IMG/VR virus record: IMGVR_UViG_3300028591_000098
Span: 32,001-96,000 of that record
From: a virus
Lineage: Duplodnaviria > Caudoviricetes
Length of the DNA stretch: 64,000 nt
Direction: 5' to 3' (one strand)
This document shows, one piece after another, positions 29,078 to 50,072 of the stretch (positions are counted from its first letter, which is position 1; each line of letters starts with the position of its first letter). The notes beneath the pieces are model-generated. The model was not told the origin of the DNA and ran no database searches. It worked only from the letters and a program-made list of their open reading frames with translations. The translations under genes and the position numbers were made by a program.

Positions 29078-29151
29078 CTGCTGCCTTAATTTTAATCTTT
29101 TATTAAAGATATACATCAATCGCCTCCGTCGGCGGCCTTGATGTTAATCTT
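29064..29151 (-). repeat. duplicated rtcB 3' end (two 36-bp copies)
   Basis: 29064-29099 encodes KIKIKAADGGD*, 29116-29151 encodes KINIKAADGGD*; 7 differences, all at third codon positions. Confidence 0.85.
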
Positions 29152-30447
29152 AGGTATCATCATGAACTTAATCTTGCAAGTTTCTTGAATCAAGTCCTTA
29201 ATCTCATTAGTGTCCTTATAAGCCATTGGTGATTCATCAATAGTTCCCTTACAAACTGTTGTAGAGTAAACATTCTTCATTGAATCTTCAAATTCCTTCA
29301 TAGATACATTCTCTTTAGCCTTTGAACGAGACATCTTACGTCCGGCACCATGGGCACAAGCATTTAACCACTCCGGATTTGAAAGACCTTCACAAATAGC
29401 TACACCATCTCTCATATTGAAAGGAACAAGCATCTCTTCTCCTACATAAGCTCTAATAGCACCCTTACGAATAATAGGTATCTCTTCGTCAAAATCAATA
29501 TAGTTATGTGTAGATATAATTTCCTTAGTAATCTTACATCCATATTTAGCAACTATATTATCAATTGTACGATGAAGAATAATATGATTGAATCGTGCAT
29601 ATGTTCTTGCAGTATACATATCACAGAAATAACCAAACATATTATCACCTGTTAAAAATCCTTCAATATGACCTTCAGTCTTTGACTCAAGATACTTCTT
29701 AAGAGTATCCTTGAAGCCTTCCATATTCTTTCTTCCATGTTCTTCAATATATGCCTTTTTGAACTCATTAGTATACTCCTTCATTTCAGCCTTTGATAGA
29801 GCGGCACCCTTAGACTTATTTTCCCAATATTTGCAAACCTTTACTCCAAAATTTCGAGAACCACAATGAACAGTTATTCCATAAAGATTATTCTCTTCAT
29901 TAACATCATATTCACAGTAGTGGTTACCTCCCCCAAATGAGTTAATTGAGTAATACCATGTCTTAGGATCCATTCCTAAACGATTAAGCATATCAGACAC
30001 CCACTTCTCTGTTACTGTATCAGGAAGTGCAGAGAAAATCTCAGGATGCTTTGATTTTGCCTTCCTAAATTCAGTTGACATAAACTTATAAAGCTCTTTA
30101 TCTTCATACATCTTCTTAGGAGACAAATTGAATCCCCAACCACATTCCTTAAGAATCTTATGATTTAATTCTGCATACTTATCTTCAGGAATTGGTCTGT
30201 CATAAAGATGCATTGAGATTTCACAACCTATGTCGACCCCCACTGTGCGAGGATCAATGTATTTTCCAAAAGTTGAGCAAAAACCTATGACTGATCCTTT
30301 TCCACAGTGGGTATCGGGCATAATTCGTATTGTCTGACCTTCATAAGCCTTACAATTAACTATTCCATATATTTGTGCAATTGCCTCTTCTTCAATATTA
30401 TCATTATAAACAATTGCTTTTGTATACTTTCCAACTAATTCTATCAT
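29116..30447 (-). CDS. rtcB: RtcB RNA-splicing/repair ligase
   Basis: IMPDTH.G.G..IG, VGVDIGC, GGGNH, VHCGSR, HNY, RKGA, HGAGR.MSR, DESPMAYK. Confidence 0.95.
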   Translation of the reverse strand: MIELVGKYTKAIVYNDNIEEEAIAQIYGIVNCKAYEGQTIRIMPDTHCGKGSVIGFCSTFGKYIDPRTVGVDIGCEISMHLYDRPIPEDKYAELNHKILKECGWGFNLSPKKMYEDKELYKFMSTEFRKAKSKHPEIFSALPDTVTEKWVSDMLNRLGMDPKTWYYSINSFGGGNHYCEYDVNEENNLYGITVHCGSRNFGVKVCKYWENKSKGAALSKAEMKEYTNEFKKAYIEEHGRKNMEGFKDTLKKYLESKTEGHIEGFLTGDNMFGYFCDMYTARTYARFNHIILHRTIDNIVAKYGCKITKEIISTHNYIDFDEEIPIIRKGAIRAYVGEEMLVPFNMRDGVAICEGLSNPEWLNACAHGAGRKMSRSKAKENVSMKEFEDSMKNVYSTTVCKGTIDESPMAYKDTNEIKDLIQETCKIKFMMIPKINIKAADGGD

Positions 30448-35960: not shown

Positions 35961-36239
35961 TTATTTATTCATTAATTTAAGAAGTTTCTTTTTAACAATT
36001 GGCTGATCTATCTTTTCACGAAAGACAAGTGAAACAACCTTATCAATATCTTCACCATTTTCAACAGCATCAATCATTGCATCGATATAATCATCAAATC
36101 TATCAAAGTCATATTTCATTGAGCCATCTTCAAAAAATATGAAATTCTTACATCTTTCTTTAATACGTTTACCATATTTGGCATCCATATATTCTTCCCA
36201 AGTATTATAAAAACTTCTTGCTGTATACATATTATTCAT
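35961..36239 (-). CDS. hypothetical protein
   Basis: first gene after the promoter at 36256. Confidence 0.55.
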   Translation of the reverse strand: MNNMYTARSFYNTWEEYMDAKYGKRIKERCKNFIFFEDGSMKYDFDRFDDYIDAMIDAVENGEDIDKVVSLVFREKIDQPIVKKKLLKLMNK

Positions 36240-37648: not shown

Positions 37649-38983
37649 TTACTTATTTACTGCGTTTATTTCTGAAATTGAATTTATAATTAATTGTGGT
37701 GTTCCAATAAATTTATTTAATGTTAAACAATTAGTATATGACATAGCTGAACGTAAATAACTAATCATATTATCTACCCAACATTTAAGTGTATATTTTA
37801 CTGGTAAATATTTTGTAATTCCTTCAGCTGTCTTTGTTTTTGTACCATTTATAGATTTTTGACCATCGGCAGAAGCCATACCAAAGAATTTTACTTTTAT
37901 ATTTCCAAGATATTGTTGTTGTTTTAAATTTGCATACTTAACTATATAGTTTAATTTATTTAATTTATATTGATAGTTATTATTAAAATCTGTATCGAAA
38001 TATTCAGAATTTACTGTCATAAATTTTTCGTATTCATTTTTCTCATCTTTACATAACATATCTATATAATCATTTTTATATTGCGCATACCATTTATTAT
38101 CAATTATTTCAAAATTTTCATAATTATTCAAATCAATATCTTGAACTTCATTATTATCATTCTTTAATATTTTTTCACCTGCAGATTCTATACATTGTGA
38201 AAATAAACTACCAATCATAACATAATCTGCACCAAGAGCAAATGCTTTAATTACATGATCATAATTACGTATGCCACCATCAGCAACAATTTTTGGAAAT
38301 AATGATTCAACAAATTCTGGTTCACCTAAATTGTCTCGTAATGTTATTGCATTTTTCTTTTCTTTATAACATTCATCAATAAGAGATGCTTGTGGGTAAT
38401 GAATTGACACATTAGATGTAGTAATGCATCCAGAACCACCACCTATACCAACTCTTATATAGTCAATAACTCTACTCTTTGCCAAATAATTTAAATCACA
38501 AATCCATCTATATGTCTTAGGATTAGCAATATTTCCAGTCATTATAATTAATTTATATTTATTGGCAATTGCATTTTTCTTTGCATTATGACATATATCA
38601 TATAATGATTTCATATGTCCATTTGCAATATCGATACAAATATTATATGTGATATGTTTTTTTCTTTCATTTGCATTATCTATAAATAAATCAATAAATT
38701 CTTTCAATGATAACGCTACCCAAGCGTCATCTATTAACATTTCTTCTTTACGTATTTCTAAATCTATATTTCTTGGTAATATTGGTATAATTCCATTATG
38801 TAAAAAATCTACTATATTTTTATCATTAACTACACTTGCCATAGGTGCAGTAAATATTGGTAAAAATGAATCTGTATCTTCTAAAAATGGATCACATTCT
38901 AAACGTGAATTTATTGTAGTTATAGATTCCGGTATAATTGTTACGTCATTATATGAATAACCTGTTTTATTAATTAATCCCAT
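37649..38983 (-). CDS. GMP reductase / IMP dehydrogenase family enzyme with internal insertion
   Basis: APMASV, DIANGH, GNIA, RVGIGGGSGCIT, ADGGI, GADYVMIGS, GMAS, EG, LRSAMSY. Confidence 0.85.
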   Translation of the reverse strand: MGLINKTGYSYNDVTIIPESITTINSRLECDPFLEDTDSFLPIFTAPMASVVNDKNIVDFLHNGIIPILPRNIDLEIRKEEMLIDDAWVALSLKEFIDLFIDNANERKKHITYNICIDIANGHMKSLYDICHNAKKNAIANKYKLIIMTGNIANPKTYRWICDLNYLAKSRVIDYIRVGIGGGSGCITTSNVSIHYPQASLIDECYKEKKNAITLRDNLGEPEFVESLFPKIVADGGIRNYDHVIKAFALGADYVMIGSLFSQCIESAGEKILKNDNNEVQDIDLNNYENFEIIDNKWYAQYKNDYIDMLCKDEKNEYEKFMTVNSEYFDTDFNNNYQYKLNKLNYIVKYANLKQQQYLGNIKVKFFGMASADGQKSINGTKTKTAEGITKYLPVKYTLKCWVDNMISYLRSAMSYTNCLTLNKFIGTPQLIINSISEINAVNK

Positions 38984-40018: not shown

Positions 40019-43000
40019 TTATGATTTATGTCTAATTGTCTTACCATCTATTTGCCATTTAGTTCCTTGTAATACTTGTTTCATTGCAATCATAATATCT
40101 TCTTCACCATATCTTGCATTTGCGCCAGATTTTTTAATTGGTGTTTTATTAGTATTAGTTGATTTTGACCATGGTGTTTCTATTACACCAGAAGTATTTT
40201 GATCTTTTACTATTGGTGTATAGTCTGAACCTCCAGTTTTGGTTGTTGATGGATTAGGTGTTGTAGAAGGATCACCACCAGTTTTAGTTGGGTCAGTTAA
40301 TGTATTATCATCTGTTACTTGTGCAATTTCAATACGTAATGATTGTCCTAATATTTCTTTAACATTATTAACTTGTTTTTCAATAATTTCTTGACGTTTC
40401 TTTTGAATTGTTTCTGCTTGATTTATAACATTCTTTGCATTTGTCAATTCTTTAGTCAATTTACTTAATTCTTCAGATAATTTATTTGCTATAGCATCTG
40501 TCAATCCATCAAGATTACCTAATTTATTTGCTAATATATTCATTGATTTAACAAATTCAGTAACCTTTGAAAGTTTAACTGTGTTTATTTTATTTACTAT
40601 ACCTGAAAATTCATCTAAGTCATCATTAAAATCTTCTAATTCATTATTTTGTTTAATTTGTGAAACTGCCTTATTTATATCAATAATACCATTGGAAAGT
40701 ACGTTAAAACCATTCTCTCCGACATCCTTAGCATTTTTTGCAGTATTTATAATGTTTTCTAATATTTTTCCTAATTCTTCAAAATCTGCAGTTATTGTTG
40801 AATTTTTTCCAAAAATAGAATCTATTAAATCAACATTTTTATCATTAAAATTACCAAAACCAATAATTGTTTTAATAACTTCTTTATATCCGTCTAATAA
40901 TCGTAAAATTTTTCCTTTTCCATTACCTTGTTCATCACCAAGACCAAATAAATCGTTGATTATTGTGCCATCACCTAATAATTTTTGTGTATTAACAAGT
41001 TGTTTAATAATATAATACATACTATTATTAAATGCTATACAATTATCTGTTCCCTTTTTAACAAAATTATAATTACTATTTATGAGTTTTACATAATTAG
41101 GTGATGAAATTAATTCAGAAATTGAATCTATTAAAGTTTTAAATACTAATAAAATATTATTTTTTGCAATAGTTGCAGTAACACTATTCCAAGGAATATA
41201 TACATATTTAGGTTTACCATTATTATCATAACCAGTTATAAGTGGGAATTGTCCTTTCGCATACATACCAATAATATATGCTAATGTTGTAATAGGTATA
41301 GATAATTTAGCTATTGCGTTTGCTGCTATCATTGCTGGTGCTTTAGATGCATCACCCGCAAATATTAATCCAGGTGCACCAAAAATATCTTTATTACCTT
41401 TAACTACACTGGTTATTGCATTACCAATACATGTTATTATCATATATATTCCTGCAGCTGCTCTACCAAAATCAACAGCAGTCATTAATCTATAACCCTT
41501 TCGTTTACCCGTTTTTTCATCATATATAGGTATTCTTAAAGATGCATAACTTTGAACAACACCAGCTAATAATGATAAAGGAGGAGCCATAGCCCCAATA
41601 GCTTTAGCTGCTAATATTGCAGGAGCTTTTGATACATCTCCACCAAATATTGAATCTGGTGCACCAAATACCTCTGTATTACCTTTAACAACATCAACTA
41701 TTGCATCACCTACTGTTGTAATAATTTGACCTATTCGATACTTTGCAGTTTCAAAATCAGTTTTTGACATTTTTTCAAAACCAACTATTAATCCATTTTT
41801 GTTGTATTTAGGAATTGTTAAAGTTGCATAGTTTTTAATAACGGTAGCCATATCGCTTAACATTTCAGACATAGCTGATAATGCTTTACTTACTTTTATT
41901 ATATCATCAGCTCTTTTAATCATTGGTGCAAATTCATCAACAATTGCAAATACAGCTTTCATTGAAGATACTAAACTACTTGCATCAAATGCTTTTATTT
42001 TAGATAATTTATCAATAGAATTAACAATTTTACCCATAGCATCGGCAACTACCCATATTGCGGCCGCACCTGCTAATACTACACCTATTGCGGCCATTAC
42101 TAATACAGATTGTGGGCCACCTAATGCTACACCTAATTGAAATAATCCAAAAGAAAGTATACCTAATACCGCAACTGCACCCACCACAACTCCTATAAAT
42201 GTACCAACACCGCCGGATTTACTTATTATTGCAGAAACTTTTGCAAAATTTTGAAATGCCTTTGATATAATCCAAATAGCACCTGCAACAACAAGTAATG
42301 CAAGTTCTCCTTTTTTAAGATCTTTTTCTGTTTTAGATAATTTATAAAGTATAAATGCAACACCACCAGTAAGGACTAATGTGGTTATAACAAAACTCCA
42401 AATATTACCTGACATATTTGGATCTTCTGACATCATATTACCAGCAAACAATAATACTCCACCAAGAACAAGAACTAATAATGTAAACTCTAAAGCTATC
42501 CATTTGTTTTTTTCAATTCCTTGTCCTGCTAACCATAATGCTATTCCAATACCAATTACAAATAATGCTAAAACAGCCGCAAATCCCCATACTGCACCTT
42601 TATCCAATTCATTATAGAATATTGATCCAAATAATAATACTATACCACACACTGCAACTAATGTACCAAATCCAGCAATTCCAACCATATTACCTTTCAT
42701 ATTTTTAGTTGCAATTTGTATAGCGAATGATATGCCAAGTATGAATAAGAATAATACAGCAGCAAAACCAAGTAATGAACCTTTATCTATATTTTTATAT
42801 AACATTGCACCAAAGATAAGTGTAAATCCTGAAAGAGCTATTAAAATACCAAATTCAGCCATTCCTACAGTAACCTTTTTCAATATTTGTGAAGCTGAAC
42901 CTTTTTCACCAAATATTTTTCCTGCTAGCAAGCATGAACCCCATAACGCTACGATCATTCCAAGTACAAATAATCCTAATGTTGTGGCAAATTCAACCAA

Positions 43001-45103
43001 TGATTCCCAAGGTATAAATTGATATAACATTGCACCAAAGATAAGTGTAACTCCACAAATAGCAATAAATGTACCGAATTCTTCCATTCCTTTTAATCCT
43101 ACTGAAATATTATCGGAATTAATACTAACAGCTTTTGTAGTTAACCAAATAAACGCACCTAATACTACCGCAAATAACGTAGCACCAACAATTAATTTTT
43201 GACTAGCCAATAATCCTGCCAATATAAGAATTACACCCGCACCTATAACTAATTCTGCCAAACCTCTTAATATTGGACCAGAATCTTTAATATCTCTAGA
43301 GTTTACTAATATTACCGATGTTATTCCACTAATAAGTACTCCTAACATTATAGTAAACTCAGTTATATTACCTAAAATTATAAATGATGATATAACACTT
43401 ACAAATAATAACATACTTGCACATGTAACAATTAAAAAGTTTAATTCACGTAATGAACTAAATAATAAATTAAAATTTTTATTATCTATTACAGGTAATT
43501 TATTATATAATGTAATAAGTGTTGATAATCCATTAAATAATTTTTCTAATAATTGTGTTTTAATTGTTGCAAGAAATAATATACCTATAGAAGGAAGTGA
43601 ATCAACAATAGTATTTATATATTTAACAAATAATACAAAATTATCCATTGTTTTCGAAATATCACCTAATGGAACATTATTATTTATTTTATTAAATATT
43701 TTTTCTAAGTTGTCAACAACATCTTCCATGAATTCAAAACTATCTATTACTTTAGATTGTTTTTTCTTATCAAAATCAACTAATTGAAATAATACATTAA
43801 TAAAGTTTCTTACATTATTTATTATTTTAGTTGATTTATTTACATCCGAACTTATTTCTTCTAATGAAGTAATTATTTCTTCAAAACCATATGTCAAATT
43901 ATTTGCCATTATATTAAAATTACGATGCATTCTAAATAATTCTAATAAACTAACGTCTGTTAATTTTAATATTGCATCAATAAATAATGACAATACAATA
44001 ATTGATTCTTGTTTTGATTTTTTTGATTCTACTGCCTGTTTATTTAATGTATCTAATAATTCACCTAAATCTGAATCAATAATATGATTTAATAATATTA
44101 TTTTAAATTTTGAATGTATTATATCTGAAAGTTTAACGGACGCAATTTTAGATATTGCATCAACAATATAATTTATTGATACAATGTTTTCATTAATAAT
44201 TTTTTTATCAATTTTAAACTGTTGTAATTTATTTAATAATTCATATAAAACATCAAAAGTTGATAACATTTCTCTAACGTTTTTAATAGAATCAGAAATA
44301 TTTTCCAAACTATTCATTGCAGAAAAAATGTCCTTTATAGATATTATTTTATCATCACCTCCAGCTATAACTTTTTTAATTGCTTCTAAACGAGCATACA
44401 TACTATTATCTATACCTGGTAAATCATTTAAATCATTATCTACAAAATTTTTGAAGTTTTCTATATTTTCACTACTTAATGATATAACATCCTTTTCTTT
44501 TAATTGTTCATTAATAGTATTAACTGCTTCAAATATATCATTAATATTATTTATTATTTTGTTTTTATCTAAATTTATATTATTAAATTCTTGTACACCA
44601 TTAGCCAATGAATTTATTACTGCCACAACTTCAGTAAAAAGTTCCAAATCACCAGGATTTTTAGGATCTGTAAATTTAATTAGTGATTCAAGCATTTTTG
44701 TCAAATCACTTGTATTAGATATAATTTCAATAATTAGTTTATTATTTACACCTTCTTGATTTTTTATATTATTTGTTTTATTGGTGATATTTACTTTTTT
44801 ATAATTTTTATTATCTTCAATAATTTGTTTTTTAATATCATCAATTGTATCTTTTATATTCTTAAAAATTCCACCAGAAATACCTTTTTTATCTTCTTTT
44901 AATTTTGACAGAACATTATTTTCATTTATATCTTGTCCAATTAATGTTCCATAAATTGCACATAATACGGCTAATTGATCAACTTGTATTTCTTCAGATT
45001 GATCATTACCTGCAGGAAGTTTAGGACCAAATTGTTTAGTATTTTTATTTATTTCTTTAACATTAGAATTTAAAGATGACAATATCTCGTTTTTTTTGGC
45101 CAT
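40019..45103 (-). CDS. tape-measure-like protein with many hydrophobic helices
   Basis: 1694 aa; helical/coiled N- and C-termini; central Gly/Ala-rich hydrophobic repeats; near the tail-tube-like gene. Confidence 0.6.
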   Translation of the reverse strand: MAKKNEILSSLNSNVKEINKNTKQFGPKLPAGNDQSEEIQVDQLAVLCAIYGTLIGQDINENNVLSKLKEDKKGISGGIFKNIKDTIDDIKKQIIEDNKNYKKVNITNKTNNIKNQEGVNNKLIIEIISNTSDLTKMLESLIKFTDPKNPGDLELFTEVVAVINSLANGVQEFNNINLDKNKIINNINDIFEAVNTINEQLKEKDVISLSSENIENFKNFVDNDLNDLPGIDNSMYARLEAIKKVIAGGDDKIISIKDIFSAMNSLENISDSIKNVREMLSTFDVLYELLNKLQQFKIDKKIINENIVSINYIVDAISKIASVKLSDIIHSKFKIILLNHIIDSDLGELLDTLNKQAVESKKSKQESIIVLSLFIDAILKLTDVSLLELFRMHRNFNIMANNLTYGFEEIITSLEEISSDVNKSTKIINNVRNFINVLFQLVDFDKKKQSKVIDSFEFMEDVVDNLEKIFNKINNNVPLGDISKTMDNFVLFVKYINTIVDSLPSIGILFLATIKTQLLEKLFNGLSTLITLYNKLPVIDNKNFNLLFSSLRELNFLIVTCASMLLFVSVISSFIILGNITEFTIMLGVLISGITSVILVNSRDIKDSGPILRGLAELVIGAGVILILAGLLASQKLIVGATLFAVVLGAFIWLTTKAVSINSDNISVGLKGMEEFGTFIAICGVTLIFGAMLYQFIPWESLVEFATTLGLFVLGMIVALWGSCLLAGKIFGEKGSASQILKKVTVGMAEFGILIALSGFTLIFGAMLYKNIDKGSLLGFAAVLFLFILGISFAIQIATKNMKGNMVGIAGFGTLVAVCGIVLLFGSIFYNELDKGAVWGFAAVLALFVIGIGIALWLAGQGIEKNKWIALEFTLLVLVLGGVLLFAGNMMSEDPNMSGNIWSFVITTLVLTGGVAFILYKLSKTEKDLKKGELALLVVAGAIWIISKAFQNFAKVSAIISKSGGVGTFIGVVVGAVAVLGILSFGLFQLGVALGGPQSVLVMAAIGVVLAGAAAIWVVADAMGKIVNSIDKLSKIKAFDASSLVSSMKAVFAIVDEFAPMIKRADDIIKVSKALSAMSEMLSDMATVIKNYATLTIPKYNKNGLIVGFEKMSKTDFETAKYRIGQIITTVGDAIVDVVKGNTEVFGAPDSIFGGDVSKAPAILAAKAIGAMAPPLSLLAGVVQSYASLRIPIYDEKTGKRKGYRLMTAVDFGRAAAGIYMIITCIGNAITSVVKGNKDIFGAPGLIFAGDASKAPAMIAANAIAKLSIPITTLAYIIGMYAKGQFPLITGYDNNGKPKYVYIPWNSVTATIAKNNILLVFKTLIDSISELISSPNYVKLINSNYNFVKKGTDNCIAFNNSMYYIIKQLVNTQKLLGDGTIINDLFGLGDEQGNGKGKILRLLDGYKEVIKTIIGFGNFNDKNVDLIDSIFGKNSTITADFEELGKILENIINTAKNAKDVGENGFNVLSNGIIDINKAVSQIKQNNELEDFNDDLDEFSGIVNKINTVKLSKVTEFVKSMNILANKLGNLDGLTDAIANKLSEELSKLTKELTNAKNVINQAETIQKKRQEIIEKQVNNVKEILGQSLRIEIAQVTDDNTLTDPTKTGGDPSTTPNPSTTKTGGSDYTPIVKDQNTSGVIETPWSKSTNTNKTPIKKSGANARYGEEDIMIAMKQVLQGTKWQIDGKTIRHKS

Positions 45104-45235: not shown

Positions 45236-46360
45236 TTACTTATTTGTAACAACTGCTACTCTACCTGTTGTAGGACCAAATACTACTCCGAGACCTTCAA
45301 CAGTATCTACTCGTGCGCCTCTATCGCGAAGATATTGTGCAACAGCTTCAGCTCTCTTCAATGAAAGTGCCTTGTTATACTCTGTTGAACCTTCACTAGA
45401 TGCATATCCACGTACTACATAAACTCCATTTTGTCCGAGCTTATCAAGTGTTTCCTTGGCATTTGCATCAAGTTCAGCACTGTCAAATGCGAAGAATACA
45501 GTTTCCTTTACACCAAATCCTGTTGCTTCCTTTACTGCATTAGTTGCAGGTACTTCCTTAACAACTACCTTTTCAATTACCTTAGGCTTCTTAGCAAGTT
45601 CTGCATTCAAACGTTCATTTTCGGCAATCATATCACCAACATTATATGTCTTGAAATGATGTGTACCATTTGAAGTCTTAAAATGATAAGCATAACCAAC
45701 TATTAAACCAAGTTGTGCATAATTCTTGTTAAATTGAATATCACCTGTTTCACTAAGATTCCAATATACACCTGGAGATACTGTGATAGTATGTTCCTTA
45801 GCTTTACCTACATTAAATGCAAAATCTACTGCTGTCTTAGCAACCAATGCATTTTTATTACTTGTTACATACCAACCACCAAGGGGTGCCTTAGGTGAAT
45901 ATGTACCAAAATAATGCAACCAACCTAAACCTGTATTTGACTTAATTTCAAAGAAACGTGGAGTTCCTTGATATCCAAATAAAAGATTAGACCAATTGAT
46001 TACACCATTCAATCCAACAGTTGTGGCTTTAATAAATGTATTAACTTTACCAGCCTTATGTACATTAAATGAACCAAATGTTGGAATAGATGCATTTACA
46101 CCCTCACGATAGAAATTATCACCAAAAACTGCCATACCTTCAACTTCCAACCCAAATACTGGAGTGAGTTCCTTACCAGCCTTAATACCTACAACAGTAT
46201 TAATAGGGAACATCTTATTGAAGTTAAGAGGAGTTGTAGCACCAACTTCTACGCCAACATAAGTGTTATCAAACACCTTTGAATTCTCAGTAGCTACCTG
46301 AGCATTAGCTGTAAACATCATGGTCAATGCCATGACAATTGTCAAAATAAACTTTTTCAT
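45236..46360 (-). CDS. OmpA-family outer membrane protein (Bacteroidota type)
   Basis: signal peptide MKKFILTIVMALTMMFTANAQ; beta-barrel region; YHFKTSNGTHHF; OmpA C-domain FFAFDSA..GYASSEG..EYNKALSLKRAEAV. Confidence 0.9.
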   Translation of the reverse strand: MKKFILTIVMALTMMFTANAQVATENSKVFDNTYVGVEVGATTPLNFNKMFPINTVVGIKAGKELTPVFGLEVEGMAVFGDNFYREGVNASIPTFGSFNVHKAGKVNTFIKATTVGLNGVINWSNLLFGYQGTPRFFEIKSNTGLGWLHYFGTYSPKAPLGGWYVTSNKNALVAKTAVDFAFNVGKAKEHTITVSPGVYWNLSETGDIQFNKNYAQLGLIVGYAYHFKTSNGTHHFKTYNVGDMIAENERLNAELAKKPKVIEKVVVKEVPATNAVKEATGFGVKETVFFAFDSAELDANAKETLDKLGQNGVYVVRGYASSEGSTEYNKALSLKRAEAVAQYLRDRGARVDTVEGLGVVFGPTTGRVAVVTNK

Positions 46361-46473: not shown

Positions 46474-47004
46474 TTAAAATATACGTGATAATTTATCTAC
46501 TTCTTTTAATGCAGTAGGTATTCTATATTTACCATGCATTTTAAATACATGCCAAGGAGCAACAATTGGTGCAGCTGTTGTTTGAACATATAATGGTTTT
46601 TTTGATTTACCTCTAAATACTTTACTAGATATTTTGTCACAATCACCAAAATTATTTTTTGCTACACCATATACAATTTTACTATGTCCATATTTAATTA
46701 AATAATTATGTAAATGATCACCTAATCCGCCCCATTCTTTATCCCCAACTTTTAAAGTAATATAACCATCTACAATAACTGCATGAATTTTGTCCCATAA
46801 TTCTAATTGTTCTTTAATAAATTTTTTAAGTATTTTCTTTATACCTGGAAGTTCCCTTTTATAAAACTCTCCTGGAACATAATCAAAAGTTACTTTGGTA
46901 TATATTGTATCTGAATAAATAATTTTATCATCTTCTAATTTAAATACAACCAATGATGTATTACATACATTATCTTTATAATAAGAATCTAATGCTAAAA
47001 ACAT
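46474..47004 (-). CDS. nfi: endonuclease V family protein
   Basis: LALDSYY, YVPGEFYKRELP, VIVDGY, GVAK, RGKSKKPLYV, MHGKYRIPT.LK.VD. Confidence 0.85.
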   Translation of the reverse strand: MFLALDSYYKDNVCNTSLVVFKLEDDKIIYSDTIYTKVTFDYVPGEFYKRELPGIKKILKKFIKEQLELWDKIHAVIVDGYITLKVGDKEWGGLGDHLHNYLIKYGHSKIVYGVAKNNFGDCDKISSKVFRGKSKKPLYVQTTAAPIVAPWHVFKMHGKYRIPTALKEVDKLSRIF

Positions 47005-47006
47005 AA

Positions 47007-47234
47007 TTATATTTTATCAATTTTTTTAAAATATGCATCTGGATGATTTTTCTTAAATTCAGTATCTTTTATAACACCTTTAGATAGACACATACAATAT
47101 TCGATATTATTTAAATCATCTGCTAGTCTATCACAATCATCAGATAACTCACAACAATTACATGGATTTTTATCATTAACTCCCCAATCATCCAAATAAT
47201 AACCATTATATAACCTATTATTATCAATTTGCAT
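47007..47234 (-). CDS. small Cys-rich hypothetical protein
   Basis: PCNCCEL..DC...CMC. Confidence 0.5.
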   Translation of the reverse strand: MQIDNNRLYNGYYLDDWGVNDKNPCNCCELSDDCDRLADDLNNIEYCMCLSKGVIKDTEFKKNHPDAYFKKIDKI

Positions 47235-47436
47235 AATTTTTTTTCCTATTATTTTTACTTTTTAATGATTGCTCATAAATTTTAGGTGAAGAATTATAAT
47301 TTTTAGGTATATTATTCGGTATTTTATATTTTTGAATTCCTCTATATTCTTGACCTTTAATAATCATCAATAATTCATTAACCTCTTTTACTGTTAAATT
47401 AACTAATTCTTCAGAAATTTCTTGAATACTACTCAT
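47224..47436 (-). CDS. ribosomal protein bL12 N-terminal-domain mimic
   Basis: EELVNLTVKEVNEL matches the Bacteroidota L7/L12 dimerisation helix; no bL12 hinge or CTD. Confidence 0.7.
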   Translation of the reverse strand: MSSIQEISEELVNLTVKEVNELLMIIKGQEYRGIQKYKIPNNIPKNYNSSPKIYEQSLKSKNNRKKNYAN

Positions 47437-47437
47437 A

Positions 47438-47785
47438 TTAAATTATTAAATGTGTTATTTTAATATTCCTGATTTTACCATTTTTTATTATTGGTTGATA
47501 ATCCATTTTCCACATCGTATTAATATGTGAATTTATAAATCTAAGTTTATTATCATCTATAAGACGACGAATATCATTACCTTCAAATATCCAATTTTGG
47601 TCAACCCATATTTTAAACCATTCTTGAATACAATCTTTCAAACATTTATGTAACAAAACATTTTCTGCAAAAATCCAATATAAATTTCGTTTCTGTTCAA
47701 ATTCTACATAGACATGGCGAAATTTTTTATTATCTTTTGTATATAATTCAAATAAAATTTCTGATTTTTTCCAAAATAAACTCAT
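47438..47785 (-). CDS. hypothetical protein
   Basis: intact ORF. Confidence 0.55.
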   Translation of the reverse strand: MSLFWKKSEILFELYTKDNKKFRHVYVEFEQKRNLYWIFAENVLLHKCLKDCIQEWFKIWVDQNWIFEGNDIRRLIDDNKLRFINSHINTMWKMDYQPIIKNGKIRNIKITHLII

Positions 47786-48937: not shown

Positions 48938-48965
48938 AAAAAAGGAGTAACTTAAATTACTCCTT
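48938..48965 (-). terminator. intrinsic terminator
   Basis: aaggagtaa-cttaaa-ttactcctt hairpin with an A-run on + (U-tract on -). Confidence 0.7.
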
Positions 48966-49293
48966 ATTTCATAAATAAAATTTCTTTACCATAAACTTCT
49001 GCTGTAAATTTTTCTACTTTACAACCTCTAGAATTTTCCCACCCAGGACACATTAATATAGCATCACATAATATAACTTGTTCTATATCTCTTCCCATAT
49101 AATAAGCTGTCTTCTCAATTTGAAGATGATTACCTAATGCTTCATCATCAATATGATTAGCATCTATTGGAGAAATATAATCATATTTTGGGTATTTCAT
49201 CTGTAAATATGTCTTTGCACATTCATTGCGTTTATAAACAGTATCTTCTTGAAATGCTATTGGTAAAGATATGTAAATTTTCTTTTTATTCAT
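48964..49293 (-). CDS. DUF4406 / nucleoside 2-deoxyribosyltransferase-like protein
   Basis: KIYISLPI...SP...CDAILMCPGWENSRGCKVE. Confidence 0.75.
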   Translation of the reverse strand: MNKKKIYISLPIAFQEDTVYKRNECAKTYLQMKYPKYDYISPIDANHIDDEALGNHLQIEKTAYYMGRDIEQVILCDAILMCPGWENSRGCKVEKFTAEVYGKEILFMK

Positions 49294-49295
49294 AA

Positions 49296-50072
49296 TTAAT
49301 GTTTAATATCTTGACTACCAAAACCTTTATCACCTCTTTGTGAATTTGACATTACACTATTATATGTTTCTTCATCAGCATCAACATATTCATCATGGAA
49401 TATAGGAATAAGCATCATTTGTGTTAATTTATCTCCACAATAAACAATATTTTCTTTACTATGTTCTAATACTTCTTTAGTATAAGATACTGAAAGATGT
49501 ACAAATCCTGAATAATCCTCATCCACAAGACATGCACGTACATCCCAACCTTTATTTCCCATTCCTGATTTATTAACATATAAACCGGCAACACCAATTC
49601 CAAGTTTTCTTAAAAGAGATACTATATCTTGATCATTTTTATCTGACAAAACAGTATCTAATGCTATCTTAATACCAGAATTAATAAATAAAGTATCATT
49701 AGGACAAACTTTAATACCTACTTTATTATTTTCTTTATCATAAACTATAAATTCATCTACAAAACTATAAACACCTTGAATTAATGAATACTGTTTTGTT
49801 TCTTCTAAAATTGGATTATAAAAACCTAAAAATAAATGTATTAAATTAGGAATTTGATAATCAGGAATTTCTGGACGTAGTTCTTTTAATACAATATTAA
49901 AATATTCTATTAATTTTTGAATATCTTCTGTTGATTTCTTATAAGATTTTTCAAAAGCAATTAAAGCTTTACTAATTTGTTCATCTGTTTTTAAATTTGG
50001 AATATAATAATCAGAACCTGCAGATGTAAAACTGTTTGTTGGTTTTATACCAAATGCATTGTAACATTTCAT
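49296..50072 (-). CDS. dut: dUTPase (trimeric type) with insertion
   Basis: SAGSDYY, NSGIKI, NKSG, VDEDYSG, GDKLTQ, QRGDKGFGS. Confidence 0.85.
   Translation of the reverse strand: MKCYNAFGIKPTNSFTSAGSDYYIPNLKTDEQISKALIAFEKSYKKSTEDIQKLIEYFNIVLKELRPEIPDYQIPNLIHLFLGFYNPILEETKQYSLIQGVYSFVDEFIVYDKENNKVGIKVCPNDTLFINSGIKIALDTVLSDKNDQDIVSLLRKLGIGVAGLYVNKSGMGNKGWDVRACLVDEDYSGFVHLSVSYTKEVLEHSKENIVYCGDKLTQMMLIPIFHDEYVDADEETYNSVMSNSQRGDKGFGSQDIKH

Follow-up and report, generated by a model that had tools for sequence, protein, structure and literature searches.

The DNA that we analysed, a stretch of 64,000 nucleotides from an IMG/VR virus record and hereafter called the window, carries on its minus strand an open reading frame (ORF) of 70 codons whose ATG is located at positions 47436-47434 and whose stop codon occupies positions 47226-47224. 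Both the ORF list and the sequence itself support this gene (47224..47436, minus strand), which in its entirety encodes a protein of 70 amino acids followed by a TGA stop codon; the translation start is exactly that quoted in a preliminary description of the locus. We refer to it as the bL12-anchor gene. An identical protein is present in the protein collection, where it stems from a contig of 163,395 b (P0001). The TGA codon is directly followed by the triplets TAA TAA TAG, and the end of the protein would consequently be the same under any reassignment of stop codons. Such a stop-proof C-terminus matters because the phage possesses a suppressor tRNA with a CTA anticodon. The corresponding cluster of nine tRNA genes lies outside of the window in its full record (G000:158655-163330), and its one CTA anticodon reads TAG. 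Recoding of TAG has been reported for Lak megaphages. The genes of the window are readable well with genetic code 11.

Only 1 base separates the bL12-anchor gene from the stop codon of the gene upstream of it (47438..47785, minus strand), and its end extends 11 nt into the downstream gene, whose ATG begins at 47234, an arrangement that reveals a long, tightly packed array of genes on the same strand. The upstream gene encodes a protein of 115 amino acids that could not be assigned to a family (no Pfam match; best PHROG match only at E 0.057), and the downstream gene (47007..47234, minus strand) encodes a Cys-rich protein of 75 amino acids with neither a Pfam nor a PHROG family. In a comparison of three loci that included the window, the genes surrounding the bL12-anchor gene were not conserved, and neither of its two neighbours was kept beside the family gene at the carrier loci L082 or L083. 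The sole terminator-like hairpin between positions 46300 and 50200 is found at 48942-48965 (minus strand), after the gene at 48964-49293; judged by its position, eight small genes that span 48874 to 46474, the bL12-anchor gene among them, may form one transcription unit. A scan for sigma-70 promoters returned 43 matches, no better than the 38.8 +/- 6.6 obtained with shuffled sequences. Two genes downstream of the bL12-anchor gene, a protein of 176 amino acids (46474-47004, minus strand) has a partial match to Endonuclease V (Pfam, 1.1e-06, residues 14-80). Further along, a protein of 374 amino acids (45236-46360, minus strand) combines a Bacteroidota-style signal peptide with a C-terminal OmpA domain (Pfam, 1.3e-11); its gene looks like a host-derived outer-membrane gene and adjoins the gene for a multi-transmembrane protein of 1694 amino acids (40019-45103).

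The full record of the window comprises 163,395 bases at a GC content of 25%, is 64% complete according to CheckV, and contains phage genes for a baseplate wedge protein, a helicase, RtcB, a dUTPase, and others. Genes in the window for an RtcB RNA ligase (29116-30447), an IMPDH/GMP-reductase-like dehydrogenase (37649-38983) and a dUTPase-like protein (49296-50072), all on the minus strand, are consistent with RNA repair and nucleotide metabolism in a large phage. The helicase comes closest to those of the Lak megaphages of Prevotella, with 39% identity along its entire length; no match to the bL12-anchor protein was found in 15 Lak records. A second carrier of the gene (G003) is an IMG/VR virus record of 122,574 bases with a GC content of 56.5% that is 100% complete according to CheckV, and a third is an AT-rich metagenome contig of 24 kb. 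When the two carrier virus records were compared by BLASTP, only five common ORFs were found: the bL12-anchor gene, a homologue of the initiation factor IF-1, a protein of 88-92 amino acids, and two others. The IF-1 homologue lies above the Pfam cut-off in both viruses (85.5 and 76.8 bits), and each of them hence possesses a second translation-related gene; IF-1 and the bL12-anchor protein may possibly represent co-occurring functions for the takeover of translation. The IF-1 genes are located at L174:1501-1686, which corresponds to G000:7409-7594 (minus strand) outside of the window, and at L175:1501-1683 in G003. The protein of 88-92 amino acids has no known family and is 47% identical over 74 residues between the two viruses; it is encoded at 35964-36239 of the window (minus strand; P0279) and at 107851-108114 of G003 (P0280), there at a distance of 2.5 kb from the bL12-anchor gene. 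A gene for bS21 was not found in the record of the window.

The preliminary description had viewed the N-terminus of the 70-residue protein as that of a Bacteroidota bL12 ribosomal stalk protein, that is, as a homologue of the hairpin through which bL12 dimerises and binds uL10. Our comparisons bear this out for residues 1-34 (47335..47436, minus strand). When a profile of the phage family was aligned by hhalign with a profile of 19 Bacteroidota bL12 proteins, a probability of 98.7% and an E value of 2.8e-16 were obtained, and the alignment places columns 1-34 on bL12 positions 1-34, with nothing beyond. In BLASTP, the window protein shares 23 of 35 residues (66%) with the bL12 protein of a Prevotella sp. 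(E 5e-11), and a conserved-peptide scan of species-representative genomes retrieved hundreds of Bacteroidota rplL genes whose products match residues 1-29, 1-31 or 1-35 of the window protein at 57-67% identity. The search with the Pfam model Ribosomal_L12_N (PF16320), which had been proposed as a check, gave a divided result: the model does match residues 4-26 (E 0.0018), but its score of 18.4 bits falls below the gathering cut-off of 25. Several other members of the family carry a precomputed PF16320 match. Judged by these sequence comparisons, the likeness of the window protein to bL12 is far beyond chance.

The longest run of residues identical to host bL12 amounts to 14 in the window copy and to 16 in canonical members of the family. 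When individual positions were compared with a set of host bL12 proteins, a set biased by the search pattern, residues 8-22 proved to be essentially invariant in 136 aligned members and identical to host bL12 while the rest of the protein diverges, and the family differed from the host hairpin consistently at four positions (K5Q, A6E, T24M/H, L26M). These four shared substitutions fit one main origin of the family, followed by specialisation.

Other searches added no relatives. No match resulted from a phmmer search of the window protein against PDB sequences, PHROGs offered no family for it, the ESM Atlas gave no usable match, and a single-sequence search for longer proteins yielded none at E values up to 1. 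Several candidates were rejected. The only PDB matches of the family profile, two AI-designed repeat TIM barrels, are an artefact of summed weak repeats, and weak tblastn matches elsewhere in the record of the window (G000, 107.8 kb and 134.3 kb) are due to chance, one of them containing an internal stop codon. The sole match in INPHARED, the 'Bacteriophage sp.' entry MT836236, is no phage homologue and in reality a bacterial rplK-rplA-rplJ-rplL-rpoB fragment; as a Prevotella-type bacterial fragment deposited in a phage collection, this entry (MT836236.1, 1-5830) would yield false 'phage bL12' matches.

The best bacterial matches of the hairpin are the bL12 proteins of Prevotella, Alistipes and Tidjanibacter, and their lead over other Bacteroidota amounts to 1-2 residues. 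The proposal of a Prevotella-like host accordingly holds in part: it fits the kinship of the helicase (39% identity) and the best bL12 matches, but the sequence motif on which it was founded is common to the Bacteroidales and beyond. We view the window phage as a large, Lak-related phage from gut or rumen Bacteroidales; the hairpin matches and the kinship with Lak phages, taken together, make a host from the Bacteroidales likely, and one from Prevotella plausible.

AlphaFold2 predictions are in keeping with the assignment of the N-terminus to bL12. For both the window copy and the canonical member P0012, a two-helix hairpin as in host bL12 is predicted. In the window protein (mean pLDDT 79), helices are predicted for residues 4-12 and 16-33 (pLDDT 84-94), followed by an unstructured segment (residues 34-50) and a helix at residues 51-69 (pLDDT 83-87); in P0012, the helices comprise residues 3-12, 16-30 and 49-61, the last of them with a pLDDT of about 90. 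Superposition by VIA-align onto the N-terminal fragment of Thermotoga maritima L12 (1dd3_C) gave an rmsd of 2.2 A over 32 residues with 34% identity, at a Z score of 2.8 that is not significant. In the wide VIA-align search, nothing scored above Z 3.5 and this fragment ranked 10th, level with unrelated helices, and Foldseek found no match in the PDB.

What follows the hairpin differs from bL12. Host bL12 proteins possess an invariant A-A-A-A-V-A-V-A run in their Ala-rich hinge; this hinge is absent from the phage protein, and an unrelated linker of variable length stands in its place (residues 35-48; 47293..47334, minus strand; no secondary structure, AlphaFold2 pLDDT 56-64). The C-terminal domain (CTD) of bL12 (PF00542) is missing as well, not only from the protein: no match to it was found in the whole record of 163,395 bases, and control genomes did give matches. 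The protein is thus indeed, as had been surmised, an N-terminal-only form. Because the two defining features of bL12, hinge and CTD, are absent, it should not be called bL12, and we regard it as a bL12-derived anchor protein.

The third part of the protein is a conserved C-terminal module (residues 49-70; 47227..47292, minus strand) that was delineated from the alignment and the AlphaFold2 model; it consists of the motif S-P-K-x-Y-G, with E replacing G in the window copy, and a cluster of Lys and Arg residues. The initial view of a basic, low-complexity tail was correct with respect to its charge, which in the window copy amounts to a net +5 from S50 to the end; mere low complexity does not do it justice, since its motif is conserved across the family and a helix is predicted. 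All family members share the motif [ST]-P-[KR]-x-Y-G, and Lys/Arg residues come after it; of 136 aligned sequences, every one has S/T and K/R at the respective positions, 135 have Y, 133 have G and 129 have P. The motif is hence conserved almost as well as the anchor; the linker is poorly conserved among the same 136 members. From residue 34 to the motif, the linker varies between 1 and 23 residues across the family, and even at its minimal extension, in a protein of 52 amino acids (P0274) whose hairpin is joined almost directly to the motif, the latter is kept. Averaged over the family, residues 1-30 bear a net charge of -3.8 and the tail one of +5.6. Within this pattern, the window copy is atypical: it carries A8S, has a Glu residue in place of the near-invariant Gly of the Y-G pair, and its linker lacks D-[IM]-P; its tail may work less well or differently. 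An HMM built from the tail only detected no relative among uL11, uL1, uL10, bL12 and RpoB at about 160 bacterial loci, nor did it reveal another protein bearing this tail in G000, G003 or L083.

The family to which the protein belongs is large. A single-sequence search returned 8 relatives, and a profile search at least 120 clusters at 90% identity with lengths of 59-72 amino acids, all of them unnamed or annotated as 'hypothetical'. When 1.84 billion representatives were searched exhaustively with HMMER, at least 28 full-length members emerged as representatives at 50% identity. Beyond these full-length members, the HMMER matches consist of bL12 fragments that match positions 1-34 only. The members range from 52 to 74 amino acids in length, and the window protein aligns with the family from end to end. 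Residues 4-22 are near-invariant across the 136 aligned members, and even divergent members retain the host-like end of the hairpin with its E-Y-G-I-E-P stretch. Several members reside on contigs of 376-474 kb (P0013, P0056, P0058, P0064, P0081). A pattern encoding IQEIAEEL retrieved no family member from 401 sampled Bacteroidales genomes; its single match there, an AraC-type regulator, was dismissed as a chance occurrence. Sequence evidence thus portrays the gene as one member of a large family and not as a one-off, and the concern that it could be a non-conserved fragment of host DNA is largely removed by the at least 120 clusters with a common length class and tail motif.

The bL12-anchor gene has a GC content of 0.21 and a GC3 value of 0.10, compared with GC3 values of 0.30-0.47 in host rplL genes, and its codon usage fits the base composition of the phage. 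Among codons 4-22, the window and L083 differ by synonymous changes in 7 of the 18 identical codons. L082 departs from the window by 9 synonymous and 3 replacement changes. As synonymous sites vary while the peptide remains unchanged, purifying selection acts on the protein encoded by the gene, and the capture of the hairpin from a host is old and not recent.

How might such a protein act? In bacterial ribosomes, the N-terminal domain of L12, a module of two helices, mediates dimerisation and attachment to the C-terminal helix of L10, and the CTD recruits IF2, EF-Tu, EF-G and RF3 (PMC4592705). Shortening of the hinge renders ribosomes as poor as those depleted of L12 (PMC4592705), and in E. 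coli, ribosomes that possess a single L12 dimer rather than two carry out the steps that depend on IF2 and EF-G more slowly (PMC3299993). Host ribosomes can take in viral ribosomal proteins (PMC6375957). On this basis, we favour, with a little more than even confidence, the view that the phage protein is a headless stalk protein, which would attach to uL10 or form pairs with host bL12 and present a basic helix where the GTPase-recruiting head normally sits; in doing so, it would probably rewire the stalk of the host ribosome. Its three parts are a hairpin that resembles that of the Bacteroidales nearly letter for letter, a flexible linker and, at the C-terminus, a conserved basic helix. In the infected cell, the hairpin would pair with its own kind or with host bL12 and clamp the C-terminal helix of uL10, and the stalk would become occupied either on new ribosomes or through exchange on existing ones. 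Wherever the protein sits on the stalk, one GTPase-recruiting CTD would be lost and a tethered basic helix gained at the GTPase-associated centre, and ribosomes would at the least have fewer factor-recruiting heads. The tail should add a function of its own, for instance by contacting rRNA or mRNA close to the factor site or by recruiting a partner; its conservation argues against a purely passive blocking role of the protein, and its charge makes nucleic acid the simplest guess for its target.

Several observations speak for docking on the stalk. The homology covers exactly the anchor region, and no CTD occurs in the protein or in the record. Furthermore, the hairpin has stayed identical to that of the host in phages with GC contents of 25 and 56.5% while synonymous sites have drifted. 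Self-association alone would permit the sequence to drift, and the preserved identity with the host consequently suggests that a partner from the host, either bL12 or uL10, imposes the constraint. The conserved tail motif, the carriage of the gene by phages and the companion IF-1 genes are likewise in favour of this reading. Against this interpretation count the sub-threshold Pfam score of the window copy and its atypical features (A8S, E for G, no D-[IM]-P). The consistent hairpin substitutions K5Q, A6E, T24M/H and L26M could alter or abolish binding to uL10, and a pure inhibitor of translation would harm the phage too.

The protein might also serve recruitment, a variant that we consider rather unlikely: anchored on uL10 in the manner of a P-stalk, the basic S-P-K-x-Y-G helix would bring a partner to the factor-binding site, and candidates are phage mRNA, a factor from the phage, or its own IF-1. 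The archaeal and eukaryotic P1/P2 proteins likewise place an N-terminal dimerisation domain on the C-terminal helices of an anchor protein and continue with a flexible linker that leads to a short, conserved peptide at the C-terminus (see also PMC4379515, PMC3616719). In P1/P2 it is this peptide that does the recruiting, and its tail is acidic-hydrophobic, whereas that of the phage protein is basic and could be ascribed a recruiting role by analogy only. No Pfam match besides PF16320 was found at E values up to 1, and we take the resemblance to be one of architecture, an analogy without homology. If recruitment of this type does occur, ribosomes of infected cells would be biased toward phage translation and not simply slowed.

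The protein might also act away from the ribosome, a scenario that we consider unlikely. It would capture free host bL12 in heterodimers, or free uL10, so that new ribosomes would arise without a working stalk; alternatively, complexes between uL10 and the phage mimic could upset the autoregulation of rplJL. The homology and the host-identical conservation on which docking on the stalk relies speak for such a sequestration to the same extent, and nothing in our data separates the two. The basic helix would in this case help to hold or to mislocalise the captured partner, and given the acidic nature of bL12 and the opposing charges of the N-terminal domain (-3.8) and the tail (+5.6), host stalk proteins could conceivably be clamped electrostatically. 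The tail HMM, for its part, has no similarity to uL10, uL11, uL1 or bL12. Autoregulation of rplJL by the L10-L12 complex is established for E. coli but not for the Bacteroidales.

Small dimeric basic proteins are common among phage regulators, and the hairpin could serve solely as a compact dimeriser for a nucleic-acid-binding helix whose target would be phage or host DNA or RNA and not the stalk. We hold this to be more doubtful than sequestration. The C-terminal helix is rich in Lys and Arg, and with its S-P-x-x-Y start it is reminiscent of the final helix in AraC-type HTH domains, although this is a chance match (L166); the tail alone is too short for a recognised DNA-binding domain and has neither a Pfam nor a PHROG match. 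A module that only associates with itself could co-evolve, yet residues 8-22 have remained host-identical in unrelated phages at varying synonymous sites.

That the gene is a dead fragment of a captured host rplL or an annotation artefact is highly improbable, for although the window copy deviates at family-conserved positions, remains below the Pfam threshold, and many metagenomic bL12 fragments have a similar length, this notion is largely refuted by the family data, with the same length class and tail motif in the at least 120 clusters and at least 28 representatives, as well as by the phage-like codons (GC3 0.10), the many synonymous differences with unchanged peptide, and the tight packing of the ORF between its neighbours.

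Set against the bL12 protein of the Bacteroidales (L7/L12, rplL; PF16320 plus PF00542), the phage protein thus shares residues 1-34 and the predicted hairpin, but has a linker of 1-23 residues and a basic helix instead of an Ala-rich hinge and a CTD; its gene is phage-borne, has AT-rich codons and bears the substitutions K5Q, A6E, T24M/H and L26M. The statement of the preliminary description that phage homologues of bL12 mostly carry the CTD agrees with the literature, as the published viral proteins were defined by the Ribosomal_L12 (CTD) domain (PMC6375957). Those described by Mizuno et al. (2019) were found via this domain, retain the residues that contact uL11, EF-G and EF-Tu, and often occur within larger proteins of proteobacterial phages (PMC6375957). 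Like the protein studied here, they are phage-encoded bL12 derivatives, phage parts for exchangeable positions of the ribosome; the window protein, lacking the CTD, represents the opposite half of bL12. Huge phages, some of which infect Bacteroidetes, possess genes for IF1, IF3, S1, S21 and L7/L12 (Al-Shayeb et al., 2020; PMC7162821). The one annotated L7/L12 example in the supplement of that study is a CDS of 384 nt, which encodes about 127 amino acids and is thus bL12-sized (PMC7162821). Their L7/L12 is full-length, in contrast to the anchor-plus-tail proteins of 52-74 amino acids reported here, and an NTD-only form was not described (PMC7162821). Full-text literature searches for Ribosomal_L12_N together with phage, for PF16320, and for bL12 together with uL10 and phage-encoded likewise retrieved no description of an NTD-only phage form. 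The bS21 proteins of the same huge phages offer a parallel (Al-Shayeb et al., 2020), since they too are versions of a ribosomal protein with an added basic segment; these basic, aromatic-rich extensions were proposed to function in ribosome binding or in the selection of phage mRNA (PMC7162821). They concern another protein and another subunit and keep the whole fold, whereas the functional head has been removed from the window protein. New among phage-encoded homologues of ribosomal proteins is a phage derivative of bL12 that has retained the anchor only and has joined it to a conserved peptide of its own; the published viral ones are of the CTD type or full-length.

From the combined evidence we infer that the protein would bind uL10 or bL12, enter ribosomes and influence translation. 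If docking on the stalk is correct, a ribosomal function would be subtracted or replaced by a phage and not duplicated. With no fewer than 120 clusters at 90% identity, the family is abundant, and it is found among unrelated phages of a phylum that is ecologically dominant in gut and rumen. Its tiny size makes the protein easy to synthesise and to assay on Bacteroidales ribosomes. Should it dock on uL10, it would provide a natural tool to change the copy number of bL12 or to tether cargo at the GTPase-associated centre, and it would give a concrete handle on the takeover of translation by megaphages in hosts that initiate translation without Shine-Dalgarno sequences.
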